This document shows, in pieces, positions 19,264 through 45,558 of a DNA stretch of 64,000 bases. This DNA comes from a virus. Lineage: Duplodnaviria > Heunggongvirae > Uroviricota > Caudoviricetes. The stretch lies in the IMG/VR virus record IMGVR_UViG_3300005329_000001; one strand, written 5' to 3'. A model generated the notes under the pieces. That model was not told where the DNA came from and did no database searches. It worked only from the letters and a program-made list of their open reading frames with translations. The position numbers and the translations under genes are program-made. Each line of letters begins with the position of its first letter. Within the stretch, counting starts at the first letter, position 1.

Positions 19264-19273
19264 CTCTTATCTC
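19264..19273 (-). promoter_or_regulatory. GAGATAAGAG motif (putative phage-specific promoter -10-like element) upstream of 18990..19253
   Basis: motif abuts SD ggagtggagg of downstream ATG. Confidence 0.4.
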
Positions 19274-19286
19274 ACGATGATGGTCA

Positions 19287-21476
19287 CTATCCTCTCGACC
19301 GCAAATACTTCTCAAAATTCTGAATCACCAGATTCTGAAGTACGCGGTCGACAGAATTCTCGTCATCTCGAGAAGAGGCATTACGCCAGAAGCGAGGAGG
19401 TCCGAACATCTTCCTGCATTCCTGATCGTCGATGCCGCCGTCGATAACCAAGGTGTACACGTTCACACCTCTCTGCCGCGCCCATTGGATCTCCTTCATT
19501 ACATACTGCTGAAGGACCCAGGTGGGGAGGCCTTGTCCACTGCTCTTCGCGCTGCACGGCGATCCATCTGTCAGCAGGAAGAGGTATTTCGCCATTCCAG
19601 GGGACATCTGAGTCAGCAGGTATCGAGAAGCGACGCGGATCGCCGAGTGCATTGGGGTCAGGCCACCACACTCGACTGGGATTGAGTAATTCTTGCCGGC
19701 CGGCTTTGCAGAGCCCAAGTAGCCCTCGCATTCGCGGTCCCAGCGGTAGATCCAGACCTGACCACTTCTGTCGTATTTTCCACCCTCTCCGCCTCTGAAT
19801 CCCCAGCGCCGGCCATCAACGAAGGGGAAGCGAAGAGAGCGTCGGAGCATCTCTCCCGCATGCATTACTTGGTAAAGCCGCTCACCGTCCATCGAGCCGG
19901 ACATATCGCAAAGGGTGAGATATCCGAACCCTTGGTTGTTCATATCCTGCTCGAAGATCGAACTGTCATTCGGCTCGATAGCGAACTGAATCGCTGAGTC
20001 GACGTCGATGCTGACCCCGCTCTCGTTGCGCTGCATCTTCTGCCTACCGAGAGTCCTGAAGAAGACGCTGCGCATTCTCTCGACCGCTTCGAGCTCTTTC
20101 TCCTTCAGTGCGACCTTCGAGCGGATGTTCTCCGGCTTCACGTCGATGAAGAGAATCTTCGCCTTGGCGTCGGCCATGAGCTGGCTATCGGGAGAGACTT
20201 GCGTCATCCCATCGCGGAAGCTGTCGATTGCCTGTTGCATGTCCCCATCGATTTGACCGATGTCCTCATCGGTCGGGATAGCGCCGTCGACGTCCTGGAA
20301 GACCTGGGCGATTGCCGACCGCACGGCGTCGGGCACCGTGGTCATGTCGACTTTGTCGGGAAGGGGATGGTTCTCTTGCTCGTCGAACTGAGTCGAGTGG
20401 CGGATCAGAGAGCTGAGAGCATTGCTCACCTGTGACGCGTCGGGGACGGGTACATCGCCTGTCCCCTGGTCGTGTGGCTCGGAAGCACTGGCTGATTGCG
20501 ACGCTCCATCGGGAACGCTGCCTCCAGCTTGTCCCTGATCACTTGCTCCTCCGGCATCTCCTGGGGTGCCAGACGAAGCTCCGGCTCCGGCACTGCCCGC
20601 TTGGGCCTGCTGCGCATCTTGTCCTCCTTGTTGTGGCTGTTGTGGTGCCTGCGAAGGAGGGGGAGGATGCATCTCTTCGAGCAGTTTGTCTAGACACTGA
20701 TTCAGGGCAAGGCGGGCGACGACGAGGGATCGCTGGTATCCCTTGTACCGGATGTGGTGCATGCCCCATTCGATGCAAGGCCGAAGAGGCTCAAAAGGTC
20801 CATCTGATACGGTAGGAGTTCCAAGCGCAACGGCGAAGAGAAAGGCGATGAAGTTCTCGCTGTTGGCTTCTGCTCCTCGACTATTAGAAATACGCGTCCA
20901 TCGTCTCCAAATTCGATCCGCAGAGCCGGGGTAGAGAAGCTCCCAAAGAGAATTGCAGCGAATATCATCGAAGGCGTTGAGGACGTAGAAAAGGAATCTT
21001 TCGAGTTGCGCAGGATCAACATGTGGCGCCTTCTGCTTGAGTTCGTGGACCCAAGGCGCGAGGAAGAGCTTCGCAGTCTTGGGGTCCGTCTTGAAGAGAA
21101 TGTGCTGCCATTCGTGCTCGAACCCAAGGTAACCCTGCTCAGCTCCGCAAGTCATGCACGAGAGTGTATCGCCGGGCAGTACGTCGAGCTTGCCCTCCCA
21201 CTCGTGTCCGCAGGCGAGTCGGTAGGTATGCCGTCCTCGTGATTCGCCGAGCAGCTCCACCACCTCTTGGTCGATCGGATCGGCGAACTTCACCCAGATG
21301 GTGGAGGTGCAGTCCGTCTGATTCTGATGACCCTCCTGCACCCTGATGTCCTTCTTGTAGGCCCGCTTGAATGTATCGTTGGTGCGATAGATCGGGTTCT
21401 TGTCGATCGGAGCCTCATAGTGTCGATTTGGTGGAGGAGACTTGCCACCAGAAACATAGTAAGAGCTGTTCGCCAC
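19287..21476 (-). CDS. VWA-domain protein (CobT-like), partner of AAA+ ATPase
   Basis: C-terminal MIDAS LTLCDMSGSMDG ... FLLTDGSPC; central Gln/Gly/Ser-rich linker; 729 aa. Confidence 0.7.
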   Translation of the reverse strand: MANSSYYVSGGKSPPPNRHYEAPIDKNPIYRTNDTFKRAYKKDIRVQEGHQNQTDCTSTIWVKFADPIDQEVVELLGESRGRHTYRLACGHEWEGKLDVLPGDTLSCMTCGAEQGYLGFEHEWQHILFKTDPKTAKLFLAPWVHELKQKAPHVDPAQLERFLFYVLNAFDDIRCNSLWELLYPGSADRIWRRWTRISNSRGAEANSENFIAFLFAVALGTPTVSDGPFEPLRPCIEWGMHHIRYKGYQRSLVVARLALNQCLDKLLEEMHPPPPSQAPQQPQQGGQDAQQAQAGSAGAGASSGTPGDAGGASDQGQAGGSVPDGASQSASASEPHDQGTGDVPVPDASQVSNALSSLIRHSTQFDEQENHPLPDKVDMTTVPDAVRSAIAQVFQDVDGAIPTDEDIGQIDGDMQQAIDSFRDGMTQVSPDSQLMADAKAKILFIDVKPENIRSKVALKEKELEAVERMRSVFFRTLGRQKMQRNESGVSIDVDSAIQFAIEPNDSSIFEQDMNNQGFGYLTLCDMSGSMDGERLYQVMHAGEMLRRSLRFPFVDGRRWGFRGGEGGKYDRSGQVWIYRWDRECEGYLGSAKPAGKNYSIPVECGGLTPMHSAIRVASRYLLTQMSPGMAKYLFLLTDGSPCSAKSSGQGLPTWVLQQYVMKEIQWARQRGVNVYTLVIDGGIDDQECRKMFGPPRFWRNASSRDDENSVDRVLQNLVIQNFEKYLRSRG

Positions 21477-21485
21477 GGGATACTC

Positions 21486-21911
21486 CTACTTGACGACTGG
21501 ACCATAAACATGAAACGCCACCGCTCCCATTTCCAGTAGGAAGCTGCCGAGATATGGGAGAGCGTAGGAGAACTTCTTTCCAACAACGTTCGTGTCCTCC
21601 TCTTCCGGCACCGTGCCTCCCGTCGGGATGACGTGATAGGTGTATGGCACGAGATTTCTATCGTTGGCGTCCACTTCTGCCCAGATCGAGACGTGCTCCT
21701 TCGGCACGGCGTAATTGCCCATGATCTTCGTCTGTGGATGAATGCCGCGGACGACGACGGTCTTGATGCGCCCGCTAATTCTGCGCACCACCGCGCCTCT
21801 CGGCATCTTGACGATGGCGGTGTAGGCCTTGAGCTCTCCAGTGAGCTCGCGGCGCTGCATCTCTTCTTCAGAACCGCCGAGCGGGAAATCGAACTCCTCG
21901 ATCGTTTTCAT
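21486..21911 (-). CDS. hypothetical protein
   Basis: internal ATG (MKTIEEF) of ORF 21486..21986; between AAA+ and VWA genes. Confidence 0.45.
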   Translation of the reverse strand: MKTIEEFDFPLGGSEEEMQRRELTGELKAYTAIVKMPRGAVVRRISGRIKTVVVRGIHPQTKIMGNYAVPKEHVSIWAEVDANDRNLVPYTYHVIPTGGTVPEEEDTNVVGKKFSYALPYLGSFLLEMGAVAFHVYGPVVK

Positions 21912-22141
21912 TCTTCCTCTCCCTTTCTGAAGTCCGAATACGTGCCGTCGCAGTAGCGCCAGCCGCTGATCTTGCATCGAACGCACTTCACGAAGGCAGC
22001 GGCATCATCAGGGCCAGCACCGCCGCGGAGTATCTTCTCTCTGAAGCTGTGCCAGCCGTTGTCGCAGAACCACAGACCAATGCGCTGCCATCTCGTGAGA
22101 CGCGTCTGAGCAGAGGCGGCGCTCTCACGATAGGGGTTCAC
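21908..22141 (-). CDS. small Cys-containing hypothetical protein
   Basis: 77-aa ORF with 4-nt overlaps to both neighbours. Confidence 0.4.
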   Translation of the reverse strand: MNPYRESAASAQTRLTRWQRIGLWFCDNGWHSFREKILRGGAGPDDAAAFVKCVRCKISGWRYCDGTYSDFRKGEEE

Positions 22142-23118
22142 TTGCCGTCCCAGAACTCAGTGACCGTGGCGCCCTTGAAGATGGAGCCCACCCGGGCCAG
22201 GGCGGTCTTCCTCTCCTCGCCCTCGTATTTGCACACCAGCATTTGAAGCGCAGGCTTCAGTCCGTTGGTGCGAACCGTCTGCAGCGTACGGACGATGTCT
22301 CGAGTGGAGAGGGCGTAGCCGATCGCCTTCTGCCTCGACTCCTTGGCGAATCGAAGCATCAGATCGGTGATGTCTTCCATCGCCGCATCCATCTGACCGA
22401 GATTGGCGCGGATGATCTGCTTCTCGTATTCGGTGGGCGGGTAGTCCGTCTCGATCTCGCTCATGCGAGACTTCAGATCCTCGTTGAGATCGTAGGTGCC
22501 TCCGTACACCGACGGATTCATCGTCCCGGTGAACCACACCGTGCAGCCCTGGTTGAGTCGGAAGGTCTGCCCAAGAGAGTCCACTTCCACCGCGCGCTCT
22601 TGCAGGACGCCGTTGAGCATCTTCTGCGACTGCGGAGTGAGGGCATTGAACTCCTCGAAGAGCAGGATGCACCTGCCGACTTCATTGGCGATGCGGATTG
22701 CCTTCGGCAGACCAGAGAGCACGAACTTCGTCTCTCGCCCCACCAGGACATATCGCCCGATGAGCTGCAAGTCCTTGGTGTTCTCTGAGCACTCCACCAC
22801 GACGAGTGGGATGCGCCAGGCGAAGGCTGCGGCTCGAATCGAGAGAGACTTCCCGTTGCCCTTCGGTCCCTTCAGCAAGAGATTGCCGTGGTCCTGAAAA
22901 GCGAGAGCTTGATACTGCGGCATCAACCCGAAGACGTCGACGAAGGGGACGGTCTGGTTGACCAAGAGCTCTGATGCAGGTGTGCAGATGATGGGGATGT
23001 GTTTCTCGTCGGCATGAGCCGACCGTTGGATCTCTCCTCGTGAGTAAAGGGATTCGATCAGCGCAGTCTTCTGATCAGCCGGCAGTCCATCGAGCCATTG
23101 GTTCCACGGATTCGACAT
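22138..23118 (-). CDS. MoxR/CobS-like AAA+ ATPase
   Basis: Walker A LLLKGPKGNGKS, Walker B CILLFEEFN, sensor TGTMNP; 326 aa. Confidence 0.8.
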   Translation of the reverse strand: MSNPWNQWLDGLPADQKTALIESLYSRGEIQRSAHADEKHIPIICTPASELLVNQTVPFVDVFGLMPQYQALAFQDHGNLLLKGPKGNGKSLSIRAAAFAWRIPLVVVECSENTKDLQLIGRYVLVGRETKFVLSGLPKAIRIANEVGRCILLFEEFNALTPQSQKMLNGVLQERAVEVDSLGQTFRLNQGCTVWFTGTMNPSVYGGTYDLNEDLKSRMSEIETDYPPTEYEKQIIRANLGQMDAAMEDITDLMLRFAKESRQKAIGYALSTRDIVRTLQTVRTNGLKPALQMLVCKYEGEERKTALARVGSIFKGATVTEFWDGK

Positions 23119-23244
23119 TCATCGCTCCTTGATAAGAAACGGATCTGGGATCACCGCGCTTATCCCGGAGGAGTTGTAGCGTTTTCCGTCGGTGCTGTCA
23201 GCTAAGAAAATGCCGGAGAAGATCCGGCGAGGAGTACTGGGGAA

Positions 23245-24105
23245 CTACTGGAGAGAGACGGTCCAGGGCATTGAAGCCGACACGTCGAAGGAGAACGAGG
23301 TCTGCGTCAGCGAGTAGGAGGAGAGACCCGTCGCCGCAACACTCATGCACCCCATCTGGTTCGGTCCCCCGGAATAGGACTGGTAGTTGATGAACGTCTG
23401 GGGCCAGTTCTGCCAGTAGAGCTTGGTGCCTTGGAAGGCCTGCCAGAAGAGCTGGTTCGAGAAGGTGAAGATGCCTTCATCCGACGAGACGTACGGAGTG
23501 CCAGTGCAGTTGTTCGTGGGGTAGTAGAACTTCGTCGGCTTCTGCGTGATGATGTAGTTGTACGGATAGTTGGCCACCGGGTTCGAGGTGTTGTTGGTCA
23601 TAGCGTAGAGGCCGACGCCGCCGTTGCCGAGAGGCGCGAGCATGCCGATGTACTGCGTCGTGCCGGCGAGCACACCAGTGACCTGCAGAGCTCTGCCGTC
23701 CTTGCCGGCCGCTCCAGCAACGCCCTGCGGTCCTTGAGCTCCCTGCGCACCGGTGTCGCCCTTCGGCCCCTGGATGCCCTGCGGGCCCTGAGCGCCCGTG
23801 TCGCCCTTGGGTCCCTGCATGCCCATCGGACCCTGGACACCTTGCACGCCTTGCGGACCCTGCACGCCCTGATCGCCCTTCGGGCCTTGGAGACCCTGGG
23901 CGCCGGTCATTCCAACATCACCCTTGTCGCCCTTCGCACCAGCAAGCCCTTGCGGGCCAGCGGGGCCAGGGACGCCCGAGCACACGCCGCCGTCAGCGGA
24001 CATGCACATCGGGATTTCGGCGGGCTTCTGCGCCCCGGCCGCGGAACCCGAATCGCAGCCAGCACTACCGATTGCCAGGAGAGACACCGCGAGGATGTAG
24101 CGCAT
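23245..24105 (-). CDS. collagen-like triple-helix repeat lipoprotein
   Basis: signal peptide MRYILAVSLLAIGSAGC (lipobox), ~35 GXY repeats (GPAGPQGLAGAKGDKGDVG...), C-terminal Tyr/Asn/Thr-rich globular domain. Confidence 0.7.
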   Translation of the reverse strand: MRYILAVSLLAIGSAGCDSGSAAGAQKPAEIPMCMSADGGVCSGVPGPAGPQGLAGAKGDKGDVGMTGAQGLQGPKGDQGVQGPQGVQGVQGPMGMQGPKGDTGAQGPQGIQGPKGDTGAQGAQGPQGVAGAAGKDGRALQVTGVLAGTTQYIGMLAPLGNGGVGLYAMTNNTSNPVANYPYNYIITQKPTKFYYPTNNCTGTPYVSSDEGIFTFSNQLFWQAFQGTKLYWQNWPQTFINYQSYSGGPNQMGCMSVAATGLSSYSLTQTSFSFDVSASMPWTVSLQ

Positions 24106-24623: not shown

Positions 24624-24633
24624 AGCTTATCTC
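24624..24633 (-). promoter_or_regulatory. GAGATAAGCT motif upstream of 24105..24557
   Basis: ~75 nt upstream of ATG. Confidence 0.3.
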
Positions 24634-25454: not shown

Positions 25455-25544
25455 GTGGATCTCCTCCTGAAAAGGTTTGCTAGATCATCTGTCTAGCTTC
25501 ATAGGCCTTATAACCGGCTGTACGGGGGATTTGCAGAACTGAGG

Positions 25545-27495: not shown

Positions 27496-27507
27496 TCTTA
27501 TCTCCCA
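27496..27507 (-). promoter_or_regulatory. GGGAGATAAGAA motif upstream of 26756..27466
   Basis: ~40 nt upstream of ATG, downstream of hairpin 27529..27548. Confidence 0.35.
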
Positions 27508-27528
27508 GGGGGAGTTGAGGTTGCTAAA

Positions 27529-28515: not shown

Positions 28516-28545
28516 AAGAGCGTGCCTTACGCTCTACTCTGTACT

Positions 28546-28555
28546 TATCCCCGAG
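28546..28555 (-). promoter_or_regulatory. GGGGATAAGT motif upstream of 28192..28515
   Basis: unit homologous to 36075..36131 (hairpin-CTTTAGCCATC...CCTCGG-motif). Confidence 0.35.
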
Positions 28556-28582
28556 GAGGACCGTGGGTTGATGGCTAAAGAG

Positions 28583-28611: not shown

Positions 28612-28959
28612 CTAGCCTGACGAGGCCTTCTTGTGAGAACTAGAAGGCGTATCGTTGATCATGGCTGGAATGGCCTCAGAAGATTCCTGAGCTGTCTGAT
28701 TTCCCTGATGGTCTCCCATGACGGCGCTGATCTTGACGTGAATGGGTGGCTTGATATACCCAAGCCCACCCAAGACCAGCGTCACTTGCTGACCGAGAAT
28801 TGCCGGCGGCCAACCGTGCTCGGCTGTAGATGGCGTGCGAAGCAGCGTCGCTTCCTTAAGGTCGTTGTCGTACTCTTCGGTGGTCTCTGCCTCCACTACG
28901 ATCAGTACTTTGCCCATCGTCGTTTCTCCGCTCCTACGGGGTGTACTCCCAAACGTCAT
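28612..28959 (-). CDS. hypothetical protein
   Basis: 115-aa ORF; start ambiguous (28959 or ATG 28917 MGKVLIVV). Confidence 0.45.
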   Translation of the reverse strand: MTFGSTPRRSGETTMGKVLIVVEAETTEEYDNDLKEATLLRTPSTAEHGWPPAILGQQVTLVLGGLGYIKPPIHVKISAVMGDHQGNQTAQESSEAIPAMINDTPSSSHKKASSG

Positions 28960-29025
28960 TCCGACATCACTCGCCCCCTCCTCCCTTTAGAAGCAAGCGA
29001 AACTTCCGCTTGCTTCTACATACTC

Positions 29026-29448
29026 TTATCTCTCCTCTTCACTCGTCGGTTGCTGGCGGGCTTTGATGCAGCCAGGACAGTCGACCACTCGGGGGGAATG
29101 AATCCGAAGCTTCGACGATGGTGCCCCATGGAATCGGATGCTGCACTGGAGAACACCGGACTGCCTCCTGGTCGTGTAGTCATACTCGTGCTCCTTGACC
29201 TCGTGGTGGTGACCCCGAAGCCGAATCACTATGACTCGGTTTGGGGGAAGGTTCTTCAGTATCGCCCTCTCTAGGTCCCCTCCAACGGCTCTCCAATCTC
29301 TCGCGATGGCTTGAGCGTCTTGCCTCCAAGCTTCTTCATCGGAGAGTGGTGAATTAGACCGTCGATGGAGCACCTTCCGGTACGTTGACCGAGACGGAGC
29401 GAAACAGTCACCCAACCACGCCAGGAATTGCCCGATTCTCCTCAGCAT
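29026..29448 (-). CDS. hypothetical protein
   Basis: 140-aa ORF. Confidence 0.45.
   Translation of the reverse strand: MLRRIGQFLAWLGDCFAPSRSTYRKVLHRRSNSPLSDEEAWRQDAQAIARDWRAVGGDLERAILKNLPPNRVIVIRLRGHHHEVKEHEYDYTTRRQSGVLQCSIRFHGAPSSKLRIHSPRVVDCPGCIKARQQPTSEEER
29034..29045 (-). promoter_or_regulatory. GAGAGATAAGAG motif upstream of 28612..28959
   Basis: followed by 10-bp stem hairpin gaagcaagcg/cgcttgcttc. Confidence 0.35.
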
Positions 29449-29946: not shown

Positions 29947-29957
29947 TCTTATCTCCG
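29947..29957 (-). promoter_or_regulatory. GGAGATAAGAA motif upstream of 29457..29855
   Basis: 6 nt after terminator tail CTTAGCT. Confidence 0.35.
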
Positions 29958-29965
29958 AAATAGCT

Positions 29966-29988
29966 AAGAAGAGGCCGAGCCTCTTCTT
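29966..29988 (-). terminator. hairpin terminator with CTTAGCT tail
   Basis: aagaagaggc-cga-gcctcttctt; 3' of gene ending 29995. Confidence 0.45.
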
Positions 29989-29994
29989 GGTGCT

Positions 29995-30189
29995 TTAGAT
30001 CTTCGAAAGCTCCTCGACGAAGTCCTCGACCGCCTTGATGTAGCCTTGGCGATCGGGGTCTTCCGGCAGCGTGTTGCTTGCACGACGGAGCATACTGCCG
30101 GCGAGGAGCTGCATGGTCTGGCCGAGAGTCGGGTTGAGCTGGCGGAGCTTCTCACGAACTTCCTCGAGGCGCTGACTGTCCGTCTTCAT
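29995..30189 (-). CDS. small hypothetical protein
   Basis: 64-aa ORF, SD aaggagaatcag; motif TGAGATAAGAAAG upstream; terminator hairpin directly downstream. Confidence 0.5.
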   Translation of the reverse strand: MKTDSQRLEEVREKLRQLNPTLGQTMQLLAGSMLRRASNTLPEDPDRQGYIKAVEDFVEELSKI

Positions 30190-30227: not shown

Positions 30228-30239
30228 TTTCTTATCTCA
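30228..30239 (-). promoter_or_regulatory. TGAGATAAGAAA motif upstream of 29995..30189
   Basis: 30 nt upstream of SD. Confidence 0.35.
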
Positions 30240-31609: not shown

Positions 31610-31620
31610 CTCTTATCTCC
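31610..31620 (-). promoter_or_regulatory. GGAGATAAGAG motif upstream of 31279..31590
   Basis: TTAGCTgttcGGAGATAAGAGaatacAGGAGG..ATG. Confidence 0.4.
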
Positions 31621-31630
31621 GAACAGCTAA

Positions 31631-31651
31631 GAAGAGGCGCAAGGCCTCTCC
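31631..31651 (-). terminator. hairpin terminator with CTTAGCT tail
   Basis: gaagaggc-gcaa-ggcctctcc; 3' of gene ending 31656. Confidence 0.45.
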
Positions 31652-31655
31652 TGTC

Positions 31656-31850
31656 CTACCTGAAGAAGGGTCGGGTTTCGAGTAGCCAGATCTGGTAGTT
31701 CTGGTATTCCAAGGCGCCATCGGTGTTGAACGTGATCGTGGGAATCAGTGGAGGCAGTATGAAACCTATGGCGTCGACGGTGACTTCGACTTCGAACGGC
31801 GCAGGTTCGCTACCCCACTTGGCTGTGATCTCGTGATTGATCTCGACCAT
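31656..31850 (-). CDS. small hypothetical protein (64 aa)
   Basis: ATG MVEINHE with SD gaggggggcggg; overlaps 3' end of upstream gene in another frame. Confidence 0.4.
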   Translation of the reverse strand: MVEINHEITAKWGSEPAPFEVEVTVDAIGFILPPLIPTITFNTDGALEYQNYQIWLLETRPFFR

Positions 31851-32693: not shown

Positions 32694-32705
32694 TTCTTAT
32701 CCCCG
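32694..32705 (-). promoter_or_regulatory. GGGGATAAGAAC motif upstream of 32271..32624
   Basis: 70 nt upstream of ATG. Confidence 0.35.
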
Positions 32706-32872
32706 AGGAGAAGAAGCGGTTGCGACGGACAGCTAAGAGAAGGCCGAGGCCTTCCCAGAGTCCTACTCGAAGCGGTTCTTGAGTCGGCAGATCAGCTCTC
32801 CGACAAAGGCATGCAAATAGGGGAGGAGGATGATTGTGGAGATGAAAGCGAGCACCAATCTCCAAGTAGGCG

Positions 32873-33300: not shown

Positions 33301-33310
33301 CTCTTATCTC
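33301..33310 (-). promoter_or_regulatory. GAGATAAGAG motif upstream of 32873..33229
   Basis: followed by SD ggaagggagc. Confidence 0.4.
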
Positions 33311-34022: not shown

Positions 34023-34033
34023 TCTTATCTCCG
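34023..34033 (-). promoter_or_regulatory. GGAGATAAGAG motif upstream of 33637..34007
   Basis: followed by SD gaaggagg. Confidence 0.4.
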
Positions 34034-34248
34034 ATATCTAAGAAATGTGGCCTTTGCAGGCCAGAGCCCCAGTGCAACGACCGACCCCATTGCGAGGTCG
34101 AGCTGCTGGTTCCGTCGTCGCTGCTTCATAAGAACACCTCTTCCATTGACTGCGGACAGCGGGCGGATCATCTCTCCGTTCAGGGGGTTGGGGGGAGATG
34201 AAGAAATGATCCGCCTCGCTGTCACAGTTCTTATACCGCGCGGGGCCT

Positions 34249-35004: not shown

Positions 35005-35015
35005 GCTTATCTCCG
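35005..35015 (-). promoter_or_regulatory. GGAGATAAGCT motif upstream of lipoprotein gene 34521..34970
   Basis: ~40 nt upstream of ATG. Confidence 0.35.
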
Positions 35016-36074: not shown

Positions 36075-36086
36075 GTTCTTATCTCC
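36075..36086 (-). promoter_or_regulatory. GGAGATAAGAAC motif upstream of 35800..35988 and its leader ORF
   Basis: followed by atggaggtgaatATG. Confidence 0.4.
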
Positions 36087-36952: not shown

Positions 36953-36963
36953 CTCTTATCCCC
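36953..36963 (-). promoter_or_regulatory. GGGGATAAGAG motif upstream of 36671..36908
   Basis: 17 nt after CTTAGCT terminator tail. Confidence 0.35.
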
Positions 36964-36985
36964 GATCTCTCTCGCTGACAGCTAA

Positions 36986-37036
36986 GAAGAGGGGAGGGCA
37001 CATCTGGCAGATGCGACCAGTGCCTCCCTCCCCTTT
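36986..37036. terminator. long bidirectional hairpin terminator
   Basis: aagaggggagggcac...gtgcctccctcccctttt; T-tract on + side, CTTAGCT on - side. Confidence 0.5.
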
Positions 37037-37362: not shown

Positions 37363-37373
37363 TTCTTATACCC
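37363..37373 (-). promoter_or_regulatory. GGGTATAAGAA variant motif upstream of 37076..37273
   Basis: variant with T for G; similar variant GTATAAGAAGG at 9139..9149 upstream of + gene 9175. Confidence 0.3.
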
Positions 37374-38224: not shown

Positions 38225-38238
38225 CTCTTATCTCTGAG
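38225..38238 (-). promoter_or_regulatory. CAGAGATAAGAGAG motif upstream of 37979..38221
   Basis: abuts ggaggtgacc ATG. Confidence 0.4.
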
Positions 38239-39180: not shown

Positions 39181-39500
39181 AGCCGCTTCAGAAGGTCGAC
39201 CCAGTAGGGAGGCCGCAACAGGGACGCGACCGGAATGCGGCGAGGGCCCTGGTAGTCCTCATCCTCGTAGACCTCCTCAGGCTCAAAGACAAAGACATCC
39301 CCGATGCGCTCGAACCTGTACACGTTGGACGGGTAGCCGTAGGTCCTGTAGAGCGACTCCGAGAACGCCCCAGATGCGGTCCTGTAGAAGCGGCTGATGC
39401 CGCAGGGGCAGTCATGCAGCTTCCTGGTCTCAGCCTTCCCAGGGGCGCCACAGGGGCAAATGAAGTAGTGAACCAGCACAGCCAAGCTGCACCTCCTCAC
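39153..39500 (-). CDS. Cys-rich hypothetical protein; first gene of leftward early block
   Basis: motif GGGATAAGAG then SD gaggaggtg; true start probably TTG/GTG ~39485. Confidence 0.45.
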   Translation of the reverse strand: MRRCSLAVLVHYFICPCGAPGKAETRKLHDCPCGISRFYRTASGAFSESLYRTYGYPSNVYRFERIGDVFVFEPEEVYEDEDYQGPRRIPVASLLRPPYWVDLLKRLWPQQSWRL

Positions 39501-39869
39501 AGCTCTTATCCCAGAGGCCCCAGGGCTTCTCCCAACCGGGCGCGCAGAAGGTCAGCAGTGGAGAGATAGGACAGACTCACCCCATTACACTGAGTAGATC
39601 GACCGCAACCAACAATCCTAACAGCCCTCGTCTCCGGCTAGCTCCCCAGGCGATAGCCTGGAGCTATCCCGCTGTAAGCCGATAAGCCCTACTCTGCAAA
39701 GTATGCGAAATTCCTTGCATTCTCCACCCCCGAAGTTACCAGGCAGGTGATGGTCTGTGACAATCCCAGCCTCTGTTGTCTCCCTACGGCCCTATAAGCC
39801 GGCTATGAGCTATCCAGCTACTAGACGAGGACTTGTGTTAGCCTCGATTGCGCCCCCTAAGGAGACCCA
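39501..39869. promoter_or_regulatory. 369-bp divergent non-coding control region between leftward and rightward early blocks (candidate divergent promoters/operators/origin)
   Basis: no ORF; palindromes CCAGGCgataGCCTGG, AGCCGGCT; direct repeats TAAGCCGATAAGCCC, AGCTATCC x2. Confidence 0.5.
39504..39513 (-). promoter_or_regulatory. GGGATAAGAG motif: first leftward promoter-like element at edge of divergent control region
   Basis: followed by SD gaggaggtg. Confidence 0.4.
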
Positions 39870-40229: not shown

Positions 40230-40254
40230 TCGCTAGACCTAAAACAAAGGGGAG

Positions 40255-40400
40255 CCAGACGGAAAACAGGGGGGACAGTGTGAACCTAGACCAGTGTCCC
40301 CAGTTTTTTTCTACCCCGTAGAGAGCGCGAAAGAGTGAACCTAGTCCAGTGGGTGGGGATTTTTTCAGGGGGCTGATAGCGCGAGAAGGGCGTCAATTTT
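40255..40400 (+). repeat. two 17-bp direct repeats GTGAACCTAG(A/T)CCAGTG each followed by a T-tract; tandem terminator-like elements
   Basis: ggggacagtgtgaacctagaccagtgtcccc+T7; gagtgaacctagtccagtgggtgggg+T6; third T7 tract at 40385. Confidence 0.45.
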
Positions 40401-40418
40401 TTTCCTGGAGGACTAGCG

Positions 40419-40877
40419 ATGAGTGCAGTGCAGGAGTTTGGTGAGCTCTACAAGCGGTGGTACAGCACTGCTTCTGACTCAGAAGACAAAGACGAGCTGG
40501 GAGATCAGGTGGAGAGGGCCTGGGCGCTGCTGAGCTGGGAAGATCGGTTCAGGGCTGATCAGTACCGAGGGCTCTGCACCTGGAGTCCTCCTAGGCGTGA
40601 TACTGACAGCATCCTGCTTCCTGTCGCGCCGCGGGTCAGGTACGAGGATAAGCGGTGGTTGCGGCTCAACTGGAGCGCAGAGACTGGTGTCTTCAAGGCG
40701 TTGTGGAAGAACGAGCCGATTCAGGGCGTGGTTGGTGCTGGGGTCTTCTTCGGGCTTGTTGGCGGGGAGTGCGTTCTGAAGTTCGATCGTCTTCCTGATA
40801 TGGCGACCGCTGATGAGCTGCTTCGCGCTGGATTCGGCATCAGCGTACCGAAGGGCCTCATCAAGCAGGTGGCCTGA
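40419..40877 (+). CDS. hypothetical protein
   Basis: 152-aa ORF, SD ggaggactagcg. Confidence 0.5.
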   Translation: MSAVQEFGELYKRWYSTASDSEDKDELGDQVERAWALLSWEDRFRADQYRGLCTWSPPRRDTDSILLPVAPRVRYEDKRWLRLNWSAETGVFKALWKNEPIQGVVGAGVFFGLVGGECVLKFDRLPDMATADELLRAGFGISVPKGLIKQVA

Positions 40878-40903
40878 ATTTTTTTTTCTGGAGGAGAAGA
40901 CGC

Positions 40904-41348: not shown

Positions 41349-41684
41349 ATGAGCCAGGAGATCGTCAGTCGACCAGATGGGCAGAAGATTGGAGTCGCAG
41401 TTCTATACAGCTCGAACGCGAGCGCTGATGAGCCGAGGTATTGCGGGCGTATGATGCTGTATCAGCCAGCTCTCGGCTACTGCGTATCTCGGGACGAGCT
41501 CCCAGACTACTTGTTCGAGGAGACCTACTGTGTGTTCGGGAGACAGTGGGCCTTGCAGAGAGTCGCTATCGTCTACAGCGCGAAGAACCCCTCCGACTCA
41601 GTCATTCTGGAGAATGCAGTTCTAGTTCTGGATCCGAGACCCGCCCGCGATCTCCACGTGCCTGCTGCGTGGATGGCGCTCTAA
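41349..41684 (+). CDS. hypothetical protein
   Basis: 111-aa ORF. Confidence 0.45.
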   Translation: MSQEIVSRPDGQKIGVAVLYSSNASADEPRYCGRMMLYQPALGYCVSRDELPDYLFEETYCVFGRQWALQRVAIVYSAKNPSDSVILENAVLVLDPRPARDLHVPAAWMAL

Positions 41685-41687
41685 CTC

Positions 41688-41700
41688 GGGGATAAGAGCC
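41688..41700 (+). promoter_or_regulatory. GGGGATAAGAGCC motif upstream of 41706..41960
   Basis: followed by ggaggtgacg ATG. Confidence 0.4.
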
Positions 41701-41705
41701 TGGAG

Positions 41706-41960
41706 GTGACGATGTTGCGCTTCATCTACAGGGCGAGCCCGTCCAAGTCTGCAGGTGGCTTACTAGACGTGAAGCTCTTCCTGGCGAGGGATACTGGGGA
41801 GGAGACGTTCCAGGGTTCTGTGTCTCTGAGCGAGATCGAGTGGAAAGCGCTCAAGAAGCTGATGAATGTTGGTGACCTTCCGGTCACCAGCAAGCGAACC
41901 GTCCTGAAGATAGATGGCGAGGACACCCACGCTCTTTTGATGGTGTCCGATCGCTACTAG
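41706..41960 (+). CDS. hypothetical protein
   Basis: 84-aa ORF; motif GGGGATAAGAGCC then SD ggaggtgacg; followed by bidirectional terminator. Confidence 0.55.
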   Translation: MTMLRFIYRASPSKSAGGLLDVKLFLARDTGEETFQGSVSLSEIEWKALKKLMNVGDLPVTSKRTVLKIDGEDTHALLMVSDRY

Positions 41961-41965
41961 CCTGA

Positions 41966-41996
41966 TAGCTAAGAAGAGGGACGTCCCTCTTCTTTT
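41966..41996. terminator. bidirectional terminator between convergent genes
   Basis: agaagagggacgtccctcttct; TTTTATT on + side, CTTAGCT on - side. Confidence 0.6.
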
Positions 41997-41998
41997 TA

Positions 41999-42637
41999 TT
42001 ACTCCTCTGCGGTGAGCGGGGTGCTCACGATCGGCTCTGGGTCGAACTCCCTTGTTGGCAGATCGCGCATCAGGAGATCGAGCGTGATCACCTTCCTGCC
42101 TTCTGTCTTGATGATCACCTCCATGATTCGGCGCAGTCGATGGCTGCGCTCGCTGGACCCCCACTTCTTCCGCAGCTCGGCGAATCTGGAGCTCTGGTAG
42201 TCGCGCATGCACTCGAAGAACCACTCGATCTGATCGAGTTCGTCGGCGCTGAAGAGGTCGAGCCCTTCGATATACCTGATCATCGTCTTCCGCTCGCCGT
42301 ACTCGTATTCGCCCGTTGCGAACTCTGAGCACGTGATCTTGTTGAGCCGCTCCACAGCCGCCACGAACAGCGAGCCGATGCCGCAGACGCGGCACGAGGG
42401 CATCGCCTTCAGGCGGTCGCGGATCTGGCAATCGGACTGCCAGAAATTTTCGGCGAGCGGGTGGAAGTAGGTGCTCTCGGCGAGCATGCGCCGGTTGACG
42501 AGCTGTAGCAGCACGTCCTTCGCCAGCATGACACGCCTGGTGGACTTGTCCGCGGCTTCGAACCTGGCGTTCGTTTCCTCAATGCGGCGGCTGATGGCGT
42601 CGAGAACCTTCTTCTCGTCTTCCTCGGAGAGATACAT
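41999..42637 (-). CDS. hypothetical protein, paralog A of a duplicated leftward gene
   Basis: internal ATG MYLSEEDEK with SD caggaggaaattcc and motif GGAGATAAGAG; ~30% identical to 44863..45492 (RVMLAxDVLLQL, CxVCxIGSLFxAAVERLxKI, EVIIxTEG). Confidence 0.55.
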   Translation of the reverse strand: MYLSEEDEKKVLDAISRRIEETNARFEAADKSTRRVMLAKDVLLQLVNRRMLAESTYFHPLAENFWQSDCQIRDRLKAMPSCRVCGIGSLFVAAVERLNKITCSEFATGEYEYGERKTMIRYIEGLDLFSADELDQIEWFFECMRDYQSSRFAELRKKWGSSERSHRLRRIMEVIIKTEGRKVITLDLLMRDLPTREFDPEPIVSTPLTAEE

Positions 42638-42656
42638 GGAATTTCCTCCTGTTCGT

Positions 42657-42698
42657 CTCTTATCTCCTGGCCTGAAATTTTTTCTTGGGATTTTCTGG
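42657..42698. promoter_or_regulatory. divergent control region: GGAGATAAGAG (for 41999..42637) plus shared T-rich element AAATTTTTTCTTGGGATTTTCTGG
   Basis: same architecture repeated at 45511..45558. Confidence 0.4.
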
Positions 42699-42720
42699 TA
42701 CAAGAAGCTGGAGGTGATTC

Positions 42721-43152
42721 TTGGCCAACAAGGCGCGAGATCTGATTCTCGCTGTCATCGATGGAACACCCTACGAGAACGGGAAGCTGAAGCCCGCCGT
42801 CCGGGAGCTGGACGAGTACATCGAGGGATTGGAGGAGGAGCTGGTCAAAGCTCGAGCGGAGAACGAGAAAGAGGTCTCTCTACACAAGGGGGCTCGATCG
42901 CAGTTGGTCGCGATGGAGGAGAAGTGGAGAGAGGCGTTCGCCATGTGCGGGATGATGCGTCAGGCGCTCAACTTTGCACTCTCAGATCGAGGGCTGCTGC
43001 CGGTTACACGCGACAAGATCACTGACGCCCTCGCTTTCAGGTACAAGAGCTCCGACCTCTGCAAGATCTGCCAGCACAGTAAGCACGGCGGTGTCGAGTG
43101 CGGCGTGTCCACGGAGCCGATTGGTGATCGTTGCCCATGTGAGGGGCCATGA
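42721..43152 (+). CDS. hypothetical protein with C-terminal Cys cluster
   Basis: TTG start after SD ggaggtgattc. Confidence 0.45.
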   Translation: MANKARDLILAVIDGTPYENGKLKPAVRELDEYIEGLEEELVKARAENEKEVSLHKGARSQLVAMEEKWREAFAMCGMMRQALNFALSDRGLLPVTRDKITDALAFRYKSSDLCKICQHSKHGGVECGVSTEPIGDRCPCEGP

Positions 43153-43358
43153 AAGATCGAAGCAGCACCGTCAAGTTCGCAGTCTTCATCGTCGTCATGC
43201 TCCTGATCGCCCTACTAGCCCTGCTTCAAAGGCTGCCAGACTGCACTCCCGAGCTCGAGGGGCACGTGAAGCTGAAGGCCGCGAACAGGTGGTCTCGCGA
43301 TATCATGGTGTGCCGGCGTGGCTCGTGGCAGCCGCTGGTCCTGAAGGAGGCACCGTGA
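43149..43358 (+). CDS. small TM protein
   Basis: 69-aa ORF, ATGA coupling. Confidence 0.45.
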   Translation: MKDRSSTVKFAVFIVVMLLIALLALLQRLPDCTPELEGHVKLKAANRWSRDIMVCRRGSWQPLVLKEAP

Positions 43359-43726
43359 GCATCAAGGCCAAGTTCGCAGCCATGCGCGAGGCGCTTCTCG
43401 AGTGGAAGGTCTTCGCGCACTTCATCGACGTCGAGGACGCGGTCGGATTCGCCAAGGTACTCAACGCTGGAGAGGACGCGCTCAGAGACACGGAGGAGAT
43501 CGTCGCCCGAGTAGAGAAGATGGAGCTGGTCATCGCCGCCCTGGCGACATCAGATCCGCTCTACGAGAGGCAGATCTGGGTGGACGGCAAGCAGACGACC
43601 GTCGTTGTCTGCGCTCTGTGCGACGGCGAGATACCGGACGGGCACGGGGCCGACTGCCCGTGGTGGATGAGTCGCCAGCTCATACGAGAGGTCGAAGCCT
43701 TATCGGCTAATAAGAGCCAAAAATAA
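43355..43726 (+). CDS. hypothetical protein (C-terminal CALCDG...C)
   Basis: GTG start with SD ggaggcacc; part of track ORF 42974..43726. Confidence 0.45.
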   Translation: MSIKAKFAAMREALLEWKVFAHFIDVEDAVGFAKVLNAGEDALRDTEEIVARVEKMELVIAALATSDPLYERQIWVDGKQTTVVVCALCDGEIPDGHGADCPWWMSRQLIREVEALSANKSQK

Positions 43727-43740
43727 GCGTTGGACAGAAA

Positions 43741-43753
43741 GGAGATAAGAAGG
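43741..43753 (+). promoter_or_regulatory. GGAGATAAGAAGG motif upstream of 43766..44098
   Basis: followed by ggaggtgacac ATG. Confidence 0.4.
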
Positions 43754-43765
43754 CGGAGGTGACAC

Positions 43766-44098
43766 ATGAGTTTGCTCGACGAGCAGACGAAGCAGAAGCT
43801 CATCGAAGACTTCAAGACCAGCCTCAATCAGACGTACACCCGCTACACCGTCACGATTCTCGACCGAGTTCTGGTGATCGTCGACGCGATCTGCGCGGCG
43901 CCCGTGAAGCGAGGAACGCAAGCACCCAAGGAGGTCCAGATCCGCCAGGCTCTCGCCGAGCTGCTGAATCAGTACGTCCAGGAGGCGATGGGCAACGACA
44001 TCCAGTTCAAGGGAAACAAGATGCTCGTCGTCGGCACCGACGGTACGGTGCTGGTCGAGTACGAGCTCAAGTCGATGGAGGTGCCCCGTGGCTACTGA
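43766..44098 (+). CDS. hypothetical protein
   Basis: 110-aa ORF; GGAGATAAGAAGG then SD ggaggtgacac. Confidence 0.55.
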   Translation: MSLLDEQTKQKLIEDFKTSLNQTYTRYTVTILDRVLVIVDAICAAPVKRGTQAPKEVQIRQALAELLNQYVQEAMGNDIQFKGNKMLVVGTDGTVLVEYELKSMEVPRGY

Positions 44099-44399
44099 CG
44101 GACCAGATCCCGCCCCCTGCCAGCAGGACATCTTCGACGACGGCGAGCCCGTCTTCCTCACCTGGTCGATCCCCTCCAATGCGATGGAGCAGTGGGTCAA
44201 GAAGGTGGCGGAGAAGAGCGGGCAGCCGGTCGACTGGCACTTCTTCGGTGGGCGCGCCGTGGTGAAGGCGCTCGGCGACCTGAAGGCGGTGCGGGCGGCG
44301 ATCGAGGAGCTACTGCCGGAACACGACGAGCTCTTCTACAAGGCGATCGATGGTCTCAGCATCAAGGGCGTCAAGCCCTCGAGGGAGTTCTTCGAATGA
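44088..44399 (+). CDS. hypothetical protein
   Basis: 103-aa ORF overlapping neighbours. Confidence 0.45.
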   Translation: MATDGPDPAPCQQDIFDDGEPVFLTWSIPSNAMEQWVKKVAEKSGQPVDWHFFGGRAVVKALGDLKAVRAAIEELLPEHDELFYKAIDGLSIKGVKPSREFFE

Positions 44400-44719
44400 G
44401 CGAGCGACCGGACTACAAGAGGCGAGAAGAGCTGGAAGAGAAGCTCAAGGCGATGTTTGAGGCGGCGAATGGAGAGTACTTGAAGTTCGAGCGCGTCACC
44501 GAGCGGCTGAGCAACCGGCCGGACATGCACGCCCTCATGACGCTCGAGAAGCTCTTCCACGACAACAAGGACCTCATCGCCGGTGCCATCCACGACGAGT
44601 ACTACCTCTCGGTGCAGCCGTGGGAGCTGGCCACGTTGGCAACCCAGGAGCTCATCAACGATCTGCATCGCTGCGGTCTCAGATACAGCGAGGAAGCGGG
44701 GCTGTGCTTCTTTGCCTAG
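44396..44719 (+). CDS. hypothetical protein
   Basis: ATG overlapping TGA of upstream gene (ATGA). Confidence 0.45.
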   Translation: MSERPDYKRREELEEKLKAMFEAANGEYLKFERVTERLSNRPDMHALMTLEKLFHDNKDLIAGAIHDEYYLSVQPWELATLATQELINDLHRCGLRYSEEAGLCFFA

Positions 44720-44805
44720 TCGACTTCGCCATCTTCCTCTGGAGCTGCCTGCTCTGGGCGAACCCGCTGTACATCGTCTATAGACTCCTACGTGACAAAT
44801 GAACT

Positions 44806-44852
44806 GGAGAGCCTTCGGGCTCTTCTTAGCTAAAAAGAGGGGAGTGGGCCCC
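44806..44852. terminator. two tandem hairpins (bidirectional terminator) between convergent genes
   Basis: gagagcc-ttcg-ggctcttc then TTAGCT then aagaggggagtgggcccctctt. Confidence 0.5.
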
Positions 44853-44862
44853 TCTTGTGCTT

Positions 44863-45492
44863 CTAGTCGCGCGAGTCGTACAGATCCTGGCCCTCTTCCG
44901 GCAGCGGAAGCTCTTTGGCGAGGAGCTCGAGCGTCATCTTCACCTTGCCCTCGGTTGCGATGATCACCTCGGCCGACCGCTTCATGCGATTGTACTTGGT
45001 GACGTCCTCCCACCCCATCGCGTCGTAGAGTGGGTGGTCGAGGAACGGGCTATTGAGCTCGAAGAAATCCTCGAGGATCTCCAATTCCTCCTCCGAGAAG
45101 AGCTCGAGTCGGGCGAGGTATTCGACCATCTTCCCTCTGACCCTGGAAGAGGAGAGGACGGTGTCCACGGCGATTTTGTCGAGCCTCTCGACGGCGGAGA
45201 TGAACAGCGAACCGATGTTGCACACGTGGCAGGCGGGAGCCACGCGCAGCGCGTCTCGGAGATCTTTGCCGATGTGGTTCTCGATGAAGTTGAACGGGCT
45301 GCAGTAGGCGAGTCCATCGATGATGGGGCTGTAGTAGTTGCTCGCCGGGTGGAACTTCTCGAGCTTGAGTTGCAGCAGAACGTCCTGCGCGAGCATGACT
45401 CGCTTGGTGGGCGGATCGGCCGACAAGAATTTTTCGTTGGTTTCCTCGAGGCGTTTGTAGTACTCGGCGAATTTCTGTTCATTGGAAAGCAT
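44863..45492 (-). CDS. hypothetical protein, paralog B of duplicated leftward gene
   Basis: internal ATG MLSNEQKF with SD cggaggttcaca and motif GCGGAGATAAGG. Confidence 0.55.
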   Translation of the reverse strand: MLSNEQKFAEYYKRLEETNEKFLSADPPTKRVMLAQDVLLQLKLEKFHPASNYYSPIIDGLAYCSPFNFIENHIGKDLRDALRVAPACHVCNIGSLFISAVERLDKIAVDTVLSSSRVRGKMVEYLARLELFSEEELEILEDFFELNSPFLDHPLYDAMGWEDVTKYNRMKRSAEVIIATEGKVKMTLELLAKELPLPEEGQDLYDSRD

Positions 45493-45510
45493 TGTGAACC
45501 TCCGTGCTTT

Positions 45511-45558
45511 CCTTATCTCCGCGAAGAGATTTTTCTTGGGATCTTGTGATAAGAGTAT
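45511..45558. promoter_or_regulatory. divergent control region: GGAGATAAGG (for 44863..45492), T-rich ATTTTTCTTGGGATCTT, GTGATAAGAGTAT (for 45587..46036)
   Basis: paralogous to 42657..42698 region. Confidence 0.4.

Follow-up and report, generated by a model that had tools for sequence, protein, structure and literature searches.

A recurrent GATAAG element as the probable -10 part of a lineage-specific promoter in an uncultured Caudoviricetes phage

The non-structural part of a metagenomic phage sequence (IMG/VR record IMGVR_UViG_3300005329_000001, Caudoviricetes) carries many copies of a short element, GGAGATAAGAG, just upstream of genes. We analysed a 64-kb stretch of it (64,000 nucleotides, hereafter the window) out of the 74.8-kb contig ENA ERZ27252311 k141_4288701. 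The element is probably the -10 part of a bipartite, lineage-specific promoter, read via a phage-encoded sigma factor whose gene would lie outside the window, a reading to which we give a probability of roughly 0.68; that the element is a promoter, whatever reads it, we consider very probable. With the G of GATAAG numbered -12, such a promoter would consist of a weak -35-like GCAA at -34 to -31, a spacer of 15 nt, a G at -14 that hardly ever varies and falls on the extended -10 position, a purine (R) at -13, the hexamer [G/T]ATAAG at -12 to -7 and an A at -6, the predicted transcription start being a T-purine step (-1/+1) some 6 to 7 nt past the hexamer. About 27 to 33 of these promoters would drive short transcription units between 19 and 62 kb, many of them ending at a GC-rich hairpin followed by (T)CTTAGCT, and the transcripts would begin either at the Shine-Dalgarno (SD) sequence (leaders of 9 to 15 nt) or at a 5' stem-loop (leaders of 40 to 110 nt).

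The window has a G+C content of about 59%, and no nucleotide match to it was found among INPHARED phages (megablast, 36 kb of the window queried). A tRNA scan also found nothing. Genes were called by our own codon-usage procedure, which left 13.2% of the window intergenic. The structural block occupies positions 44 to 16551 on the plus strand and includes the capsid gene (2544-3662, PHROG major head protein). From 16.5 to 39.5 kb there is a long minus-strand block of small genes, mostly ORFans, and mixed-strand blocks extend from there to the end of the window.

The element was strongly over-represented. Its core, G-R-[G/T]ATAAG (GRKATAAG), occurred 27 times against 2.73 expected, a number reached in none of 100 shuffles, and GATAAGA occurred 21 times against 3.6 expected. 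In the 80 nt that precede called genes no other 7-mer was as enriched as the latter, SD words included. The initial annotation had counted at least 22 copies of (G)GGAGATAAGAG. This number is too high for the full consensus, since the 11-mer was present in only 3 exact copies, or 13 when one mismatch was allowed (1.33 expected from shuffles); the element is thus shorter and more degenerate than first described.

The placement of the element was equally distinctive. Far from occurring as often in coding DNA, which would have spoken against a promoter, 29 of the 32 copies of GNKATAAG were intergenic (binomial p ~1e-22). A same-strand start codon followed within 130 nt in 27 of the 32, in accordance with the coding-strand position claimed at the outset, and two of the remaining copies (36078 and 59247) head small open reading frames (ORFs) absent from the gene calls; all copies inspected for this pointed towards an ORF downstream. 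Sites ranged from 19266 to 61465 and none fell in the structural block (1 to 16.5 kb), which bears out the proposed preference for early/accessory blocks. The range first given for them, 19264 to 45558, was too narrow, further sites being located at 52346, 55379, 59247, 59280, 60284 and 61458. Six intergenic sequences with one mismatch (25507, 42697, 45546, 52346, 55379 and 55408) are plausible additional members. Regarding the two variants singled out earlier, the one at 37363 (GGGTATAAGAAC) is a good site, while that at 9139, located in coding sequence and without the G that nearly all other sites have two bases upstream, is indistinguishable from chance.

The consensus was derived from two alignments, one of 31 intergenic [G/T]ATAAG sites of the window, taken unselected, and another in which 27 window sites were joined by 38 sites of six relatives (65 in all; see below). 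When the first base of the hexamer is numbered 0 (G0 numbering), the window sites read c-G-G-R-[G/T]ATAAG-A-R, with G at -2 in 30 of 31. The ATAA positions were invariant in both alignments. Among the 65 sites, in promoter numbering, position -7 was always G, -12 was G in 60, -14 was G, and -13 was A or G in all selected sites, while -15 was variable, so that GGAG is not conserved. The conserved contiguous stretch is only about 10 bp long, and it is accompanied by a separate upstream block. In G0 numbering this block showed A at -20 in 46/65 and at -19 in 47/65 sites, G at -22 in 34/65 and C at -21 in 29/65; in the window alone, A was found at -20 in 18/31 and at -19 in 20/31. The resulting GCAA is separated from GGRGATAA by 15 nt. 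The statement that no -35-like hexamer lies at a fixed distance was therefore not upheld, since a weak GCAA at fixed spacing emerged from both alignments. Downstream, T at +11 (25/65) and G at +12 (34/65) stood out.

These features agree with the general bipartite layout of the sigma-70 family, namely a -10-type hexamer with A at -11 and an upstream element, here weak, at a fixed distance of 15 to 18 bp. The signs of the predicted start of transcription near +11/+12 (G0 numbering) are indirect: the enrichment of T at +11 and of G or A at +12, and the SDs and conserved leader hairpins that begin at +11 to +14. In about 11 sites the SD begins 11 to 14 nt past the first base of the hexamer. The others have leaders of 40 to 113 nt, usually with a stem-loop starting 6 to 15 nt past the hexamer, and several of these long leaders open with a recurrent TGTAG/TAGAGC; the distance from motif to start codon ranges from 18 to more than 110 nt. 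The very short leaders initially proposed would thus apply to about 11 sites and not to the rest. The fixed layout of motif, 3 to 8 nt, GGAGGTGA, 5 to 7 nt and start codon was found at four sites (36083, 38232, 41691 and 43744), with a similar arrangement around an AGGAGG-type SD at about seven; the remaining sites depart from it.

A second repeated signal accompanies the first. Between 23200 and 61856, GC-rich hairpins are followed by the tail (T)CTTAGCT instead of a plain T-run. CTTAGCT was present in 15 copies against 3.7 expected, and a strong hairpin lay directly 5' of 25 of the 34 copies of TTAGC. Such elements are found at convergent gene ends (41.97, 44.83, 50.25, 58.62 and 60.14 kb), and at least 9 copies of the motif have one 4 to 35 nt upstream. 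If the hairpin and CTTAGCT terminate transcription, the next gene requires a promoter, and the motif is the only conserved sequence available. We considered CTTAGCT itself as a -35 element and ruled this out, given its varying distance from the motif (4 to 35 nt) and its presence at convergent gene ends. The same tail follows hairpins in relatives, such as loci L003 (at 11165 and 11287), L199 and L202 to L204, and in Salmonella phage Arash, there as TTTTTAGC. CTTATC, the reverse complement of the promoter core, is one base apart from CTTAGC.

Four divergent intergenic regions, 83 to 377 nt long (at 42.7, 45.5, 55.4 and 59.3 kb), contain back-to-back copies of the motif or close variants, 25 to 34 nt apart, which leaves no room for other promoters. 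Scans for the sigma-70 consensus (TTGACA-N17-TATAAT) gave 3 matches against 4.9 expected between 27 and 46.5 kb and 1 against 4.0 between 46 and 64 kb, none of them upstream of a gene. Because the element is intergenic and oriented with the genes, lies behind putative terminators and in back-to-back pairs, has an upstream partner at a fixed distance, occurs where canonical sigma-70 promoters are absent and is conserved across the lineage, we read it as a promoter signal at the level of DNA. The sites and the terminator-like hairpins are collected in Table 1.

Table 1. Positions of the motif sites and of representative terminator-like hairpins in the window
Feature	Position	Strand	Remarks
Core GAGATAAG	19266..19273	-	ATG 18 nt past G of GATAAG; orthologous site kept in L199, L202, L203 and L204 (alignment A2)
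Core GGGATAAG	23159..23166	-	Upstream of AAA (MoxR/CobS-like) gene; kept in 5/6 relatives (alignment A1)
Core GAGATAAG	24626..24633	-	Leader 74 nt; orthologs at 8603 (L199) and 8574 (L202)
Variant core GTTATAAG	25507..25514	-	Upstream of dCMP deaminase gene; GCAA at -22..-19; orthologous TATAAG in L199 7727-7842
Core GAGATAAG	27497..27504	-	Upstream GCAA; behind putative terminator at 27527
Core GGGATAAG	28544..28551	-	Behind putative terminator at 28578; leader hairpin TAGAGCG...CGCTCT
Core GAGATAAG	29025..29032	-	Followed by TGTAG and leader hairpin AGAAGCAAGCG...GCTTGCTTCT
Core GAGATAAG	29948..29955	-	Hairpin+CTTAGCT 5 nt upstream
Core GAGATAAG	30231..30238	-	Overlaps 3' end of upstream gene
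Core GAGATAAG	31612..31619	-	Hairpin+CTTAGCT 4 nt upstream
Core GGGATAAG	32696..32703	-	Upstream GCAA; behind putative terminator at 32736
Core GAGATAAG	33303..33310	-	Behind hairpin+TTTTTAGTT
Core GAGATAAG	34024..34031	-	Behind hairpin+TTCTTAGAT
T-variant GGTATAAG	34230..34237	-	GCAA upstream, TGTG downstream
Core GAGATAAG	35006..35013	-	
Core GAGATAAG	36078..36085	-	GGAGGTGA starts 11 nt past G0; heads ORF of 24-28 amino acids, then ORF of 62 amino acids
Core GGGATAAG	36955..36962	-	Behind hairpin+CTTAGCT; leader hairpin
T-variant GGTATAAG	37365..37372	-	GCAA upstream; TGTAG and leader hairpin downstream
Core GAGATAAG	38227..38234	-	Within 3' end of upstream gene; followed by GGAGGTGA
Core GGGATAAG	39505..39512	-	First predicted promoter of minus-strand block
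Core GGGATAAG	41689..41696	+	GGAGGTGA starts at +11
Core GAGATAAG	42659..42666	-	Back-to-back with variant GGTACAAG at 42697-42704 (+)
Variant core GGTACAAG	42697..42704	+	For plus-strand gene at 42721; upstream TTTTTCTTGGGAT shared with site 45546
Core GAGATAAG	43742..43749	+	GGAGGTGA starts at +11
Core GAGATAAG	45512..45519	-	Back-to-back with 45546, 30 nt between
Variant core GTGATAAG	45546..45553	+	
Variant core GCGATAAG	52346..52353	-	Behind putative terminator at 52384; TGTG downstream
Variant core GCGATAAG	55379..55386	-	Back-to-back with GAGACAAG at 55408
Variant core GAGACAAG	55408..55415	+	For gene at 55445
Core GAGATAAG	59247..59254	-	Back-to-back with 59280 (GATAAG hexamers 29 nt apart, listed 8-mers 25 nt); heads ORF 58891-59241
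Core GGGATAAG	59280..59287	+	For gene at 59336
Core GGGATAAG	60284..60291	-	GCAA upstream; no clear downstream gene
T-variant GATATAAG	61458..61465	-	For gene at 61423
Terminator-like hairpin AAGAGGC..GCCTCTT + CTTAGCT	29963..29999	-	Class example
Hairpin + CTTAGCT	31626..31662	-	
Hairpin + CTTAGCT	32732..32768	-	
Hairpin + CTTAGCT	36981..37017	-	
Bidirectional hairpin AAGAAGAGGGAcgTCCCTCTTCTT, CTTAGCT on minus strand	41960..42000	both	Between convergent genes
Two back-to-back hairpins with common palindrome CTTAGCTAAG	44800..44862	.	Between convergent genes
Bidirectional hairpin GCTAAAAAGAGGGCG..CGCCCTCTTAGC	50225..50259	both	Between convergent genes
Hairpin + TTTTCTTAGCT	58619..58652	-	
Hairpin + TTTTTCTTAGCT	60138..60172	-	

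The element is shared by a family of uncultured phages. IMG/VR contains 133 relatives of the capsid protein, several of them on contigs of 177 to 199 kb, and homologs of the AAA protein (22138-23118) occur on contigs of up to 212 kb, which indicates a family of phages of roughly 200 kb. The early regions of relatives were reached via these AAA homologs and exact-sequence look-ups. In six relatives with syntenic early regions (AAA identities of 74, 68, 49, 43, 42 and 36%; G+C content 55 to 65%), G-R-[G/T]ATAAG was present upstream of genes in all six, and its 38 sites lay without exception on the plus strand, which carries nearly all the early genes called in those loci. Hairpin+TTAGC elements occurred in most of the six. 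In orthologous intergenic regions the motif was retained and the flanks had diverged (alignments A1 and A2). Raw counts of GATAAG in capsid-centred loci were discarded as uninformative, due to in-frame Asp-Lys codons in relatives of lower G+C content. IMG/VR scans with three accessory proteins yielded no relatives, and a scan for the motif+SD pattern gave mostly single chance matches among the matches listed.

Among deposited phages, the capsid protein has relatives only in Salmonella phage Arash (27% identity) and in three phages of Vibrio. The large terminase of Arash is 25 to 31% identical to that of the family, and one structural protein is also common to both. Arash encodes its own RNA polymerase beta/beta' and two sigma factors; its virion proteome includes beta, beta' and a sigma factor, gp10, and promoters are not mentioned in that study (PMC10585845). 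In our analysis gp206 proved to be a genuine fusion of beta and beta', and its environmental homologs number in the hundreds; gp10, the only sigma factor of a cultured relative that was scanned, gave its best NCBIfam matches with FliA/WhiG, at scores that fell well short of the family cutoffs. When k-mers upstream of Arash genes were counted without bias, TGGTATAAG ranked first. Twenty-nine sites precede minus-strand early/accessory genes of this phage, with G at -7 in all 29, a consensus of tGGTATAAG-(t/a)AAag-TGTA and a weak A-rich box near -20. Similarly, 75 IMG/VR loci around Arash-type RNA polymerase beta genes (G+C content 37 to 54%) contained 87 unique GGTATAAG sites, and 103 of the 108 occurrences were on the strand opposite the polymerase gene. 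Their consensus was T-Y-M-A-A-T at -24 to -19, T-G-G-TATAAG (TGGTATAAG), and then T(+11), R(+12) and A(+14).

The window sites carry the signature of this Arash-type class (G at -14, G at -7, T-purine step, A-rich box, early genes). Both share the order of elements with spacing within 1 nt (TTCAAT-N16-TGGTATAAG-N5-TGTA in the Arash type), the -14 G, ATAAG and the -7 G, the T-purine step at +11/+12, an A-rich -35-like box about 20 nt upstream and the location on the early/accessory strand; the terminator hairpins of Arash also end in TTTTAGC. They differ in that -12 is T in the Arash type but mostly G in the window family, that T at -15 is conserved only in the former, and that its -35-like box, TYMAAT, lies one nucleotide further upstream. 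Moreover, Arash-type phages carry beta/beta' genes, whereas none was found on contigs of the window family among 84 IMG/VR relatives of the beta subunit.

Among the known promoter types, those of sigma-28 are the closest in geometry. Their elements are (-36)TCTAAAG(-30) and (-15)GCCGATAA(-8) (PMC12784957). In common with sigma-28 promoters (FliA/WhiG/SigD; TAAA-N15-GCCGATAA), the window sites have GATAA at -12 to -8, the AA of the -35 element at -32/-31, a gap of 15 nt between 4-mer and 8-mer and a conserved base pair at the extended -10 position, and the best, if distant, matches of Arash gp10 point to the same group. However, the GCC that precedes GATAA in sigma-28 promoters is (n)G-R here, which turns the CGA core into RGA, G-A is conserved at -7/-6, and the -35 element is GCAA instead of TAAA; the spacing is that of the class, while GCCGATAA with its CGA core and the TAAA -35 are lacking. 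Extended -10 promoters of sigma-70 (TGnTATAAT) likewise share the G at -14, the ATAA core and a weak or dispensable -35, and Arash-type TGGTATAAG agrees with them at 8 of 9 positions. Nevertheless, every site has G at -7, where T is highly conserved in sigma-70 promoters, and in the window family G predominates at -12 and the base at -15 is other than T. The Salmonella sigma-70 consensus also has T at -7, and the housekeeping pattern of T at -7 and -12 with a TTGACA-like -35 was not observed. Having G and not T at -7, and G/R and not the CC of sigma-28 at -14/-13, the sites suggest a sigma factor with a specificity of its own.

The annotation had likened the element to the late promoters of phage T4 (TATAAATA, gp55/gp33/gp45), which consist of a -10-type box only. 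Both are short A/T-rich -10-type boxes put to use many times by a phage, and in both a non-housekeeping specificity factor is involved or suspected. The comparison fails in other respects: the sequences differ, the sites have an extended -10 G and, 15 nt before the 8-mer, a weak -35-like GCAA, the motif marks non-structural, early-looking genes and not late structural ones, and proteins of the gp55/gp33/gp45 type were not detected in the window. Promoters of single-subunit polymerases of the T7 type have about 20 contiguous conserved bp across the start, in contrast to the 10 bp and separate block seen here, and no such polymerase gene was found in the window. Phage sigma factors such as SPO1 gp28 and gp33/34 in Bacillus subtilis, or phiEco32 gp36, read phage-specific bipartite or -10-dominated consensus sequences that recur throughout the genome. 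The present sites resemble these in being recurrent and unlike a host consensus; the sequences are different, and the sigma factor is here postulated from distant relatives.

The origin of the recognising factor follows from conservation. A promoter type kept over G+C contents from 37 to 65%, with Salmonella and Vibrio as the only known hosts, argues for a specificity factor other than a host housekeeping sigma, and its presence across a deep phage lineage makes a phage-encoded sigma, located outside the window, the most probable candidate. The initial suggestion of such an external factor is supported by this conservation; no factor turned up in the window or in about 75 kb of family sequence.

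Several observations weigh against the proposed sigma-type promoter, whose function and start site are predicted from the nucleotide sequence. No sigma factor or RNA polymerase was found among essentially all ORFs of the window (Pfam/NCBIfam), nor in the 75 kb of family sequence (tblastn with the Arash sigma and polymerase genes; a hidden Markov model of gp10 homologs), which leaves about 125 kb of each family genome outside the search. None of the 84 IMG/VR beta relatives lay on the near-complete contigs of the family, in a scan that requires exact peptide words. The family may therefore be without an Arash-type polymerase; it may combine a sigma of its own with the core enzyme of the host, or else rely on a host sigma. 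Searches for homologs of gp10 and gp206 provided no factor for the window family, and two loci with a distant gp10-like sigma (L212 and L213) could not be linked to it. In addition, GCAA is weak and was not seen at sites directly behind terminators. Finally, the SD starts 1 nt past GATAAG in three orthologous sites (19266; L199 14275; L202 13291), and in some leaders a hairpin follows GATAAG immediately; a start at +12 would truncate these SDs and hairpins.

The last of these points would be accommodated if transcription started at or before +6, as expected for a compact promoter not of the sigma-70 type, with its start inside or at the end of the motif, read by a T4 gp55-like -10-only system or by a single-subunit or non-canonical phage RNA polymerase. 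The downstream TGTA of Arash-type phages resembles an initiator element, and the yeast mitochondrial promoter ATATAAGTA(+1) and the purine-rich start region of SP6 promoters look similar to the motif. We find this very unlikely, given that a -35-like element at a fixed distance and an extended -10 G suit sigma regions 4 and 3, that the relatives which do encode a polymerase have multisubunit beta/beta' and sigma factors, and that neither gp55/gp33-like proteins nor a single-subunit polymerase was detected with Pfam (essentially all window ORFs) or PHROG (ten ORFs). The SDs and hairpins that begin immediately past GATAAG could also be explained if the motif acted in the RNA, as the site of a translational repressor or activator or of a phage or host endoribonuclease that cleaves polycistronic transcripts, leaving a 3' hairpin upstream and an SD or 5' hairpin downstream. 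The coding-strand motif does lie just 5' of the SD in some 11 sites, and hairpin+CUUAGCU might be a 3' stabiliser instead of a terminator. Yet the distance to the start codon varies widely while an unpaired GCAA keeps its fixed place upstream, divergent pairs leave no space for other promoters, canonical promoters for the precursor transcripts were not found, and an Rfam scan gave no match. The varying distance to the start codon speaks against an operator bound at the ribosome-binding site, the alternative that the annotation offered; as regards a RegB-type cleavage site, GGAG is not conserved. An RNA-level role is, in our view, about as unlikely as a compact promoter.

A more serious competitor dispenses with a phage factor and regards the sites as ordinary promoters for the housekeeping sigma or an alternative (e.g., FliA-type) sigma of a host whose consensus differs from TTGACA/TATAAT. 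In its favour, the architecture is bacterial, no phage sigma or polymerase was found in about 75 kb of family sequence, and no Arash-type beta was found on family contigs. The sole genome match was a 6.5-kb contig (L290, JAJRBU010000229.1) with a capsid gene 79% identical to that of the window, binned in the metagenome-assembled genome of a wetland Methanoregulaceae archaeon; this placement, the sole hint at a host type, is probably a binning artefact. Even so, we regard host recognition as unlikely, since G at -7, G at -14 and TG(T)A are kept over the whole range of G+C content, including in Arash on Salmonella, and the CGA core of sigma-28 is RGA in all sites. The archaeal match also led us to consider a TATA/BRE reading, which was rejected: with transcription starting about 26 nt downstream, the start codons of the genes with short leaders would already have been passed. 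There is, lastly, a slim chance that a DNA-binding repressor or activator of the phage uses the motif as its operator, which would then overlap unrecognised core promoters. One copy per regulatory region would fit, and a response-regulator receiver protein and a winged-helix protein are among the products encoded in the window; but the motif lacks symmetry, occurs singly and invariably points in the direction of the gene, its phase relative to the -35-like element and the start-region signals is fixed, and no other core promoter was detectable.

Beyond the bipartite sigma-type promoter favoured here, a wider unification can be put forward tentatively, as a possibility that we would not yet bet on. 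The sites might belong to an undescribed lineage-wide class, (T)YMAA(T), N15-17, (T)G-R-[G/T]ATAAG, N5, T-R(T)A, common to a large and almost wholly uncultured group of 170- to 210-kb myoviruses (Arash, Vibrio phages D69, D148 and D181, and the window family) and read by a phage group-3-like (FliA/WhiG-related) sigma factor. In this scheme G at -7 and at -14 would exclude the host sigma-70, the partner would be phage beta/beta' in some branches and possibly the host core here, and hairpin+UUAGC would constitute the matching stop signals.

Some further observations were made in passing. Past the 29025 site and the hairpin of its leader there is a mini-ORF of 3 codons with a suitably spaced SD (28959-28970, minus strand; ATG TCG GAA TGA), whose stop codon overlaps the ATG of a 115-amino-acid ORF (28612-28959; ATGA overlap), an arrangement that suggests translational coupling by a leader peptide. 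In Arash (OQ632216, L209) a GGGTATAAG site at 11590 (+) precedes the ATG of gp9 by 10 nt, gp9 being the immediate neighbour, on the upstream side, of the gene for the sigma factor gp10; with the predicted start at +12, the gp9 transcript would be leaderless. The 390-nt divergent region that separates the minus- and plus-strand blocks (39480-39869) contains GCCGATAAG at about 39678 (+), a perfect sigma-28 -10 8-mer, and CCCTATAAGCC at about 39790 (+), both without the usual G-R context. The following part of the plus-strand block (40230-40903) has intergenic signals of another style, the GATAAG motif not being present there: two 17-nt direct repeats, GTGAACCTAG(A/T)CCAGTG, at about 40279 and 40334, both with a G-rich stem and then a long run of T behind them, and (A)TTTTTTT(T)C(C)TGGAGG ahead of the genes at 40419 and 40904.

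As for neighbouring genes, the AAA_5 (MoxR/CobS-like) ATPase is clustered with a 729-amino-acid protein having a C-terminal VWA domain (19287-23118, minus strand), two small genes apart; the two are adjacent in L202, L203 and L207, and the pair is kept family-wide, down to 36% identity. A stand-alone response-regulator receiver protein of 119 amino acids (18162-18521, minus strand; Pfam Response_reg, E value 1.7e-15) is encoded between the structural and early blocks. It is conserved in L202 (14416-14793), unusual in a phage and without a DNA-binding domain, and is a conceivable regulator. A C-terminal domain of the ribosomal L7/L12 type is present in the protein following the capsid (3784-4554, plus strand). 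Just outside the window, the gene upstream of it (L205 1055-3460) encodes an 801-amino-acid structural-region protein with an inorganic pyrophosphatase (InPase) domain, the N terminus of which is about 40% identical to the Arash structural protein gp222.

Literature searches on GATAAG or GGTATAAG as phage promoters returned unrelated papers only, and no description of the motif was found. Phage-specific promoters as such are already known; it is the consensus, the G at -7 and the spread over a large uncultured lineage that appear undescribed in the literature searched. At -7, almost every known factor of the sigma-70 type binds a T that is flipped out, and a sigma factor preferring G at this position would be informative for the rules of promoter recognition and might serve as an orthogonal expression part. 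If the reading is true, transcription units could be delimited from sequence alone among the ORFan genes of this phage, which number roughly 100, and among those of its many uncultured relatives, with GCAA-N15-GGRGATAAGA as promoter and hairpin+CTTAGCT as stop. It would also link an uncultured soil and wetland phage family to the cultured phage Arash, whose virion contains RNA polymerase subunits and a sigma factor and in which the -7 G/-14 G signature can be tested.

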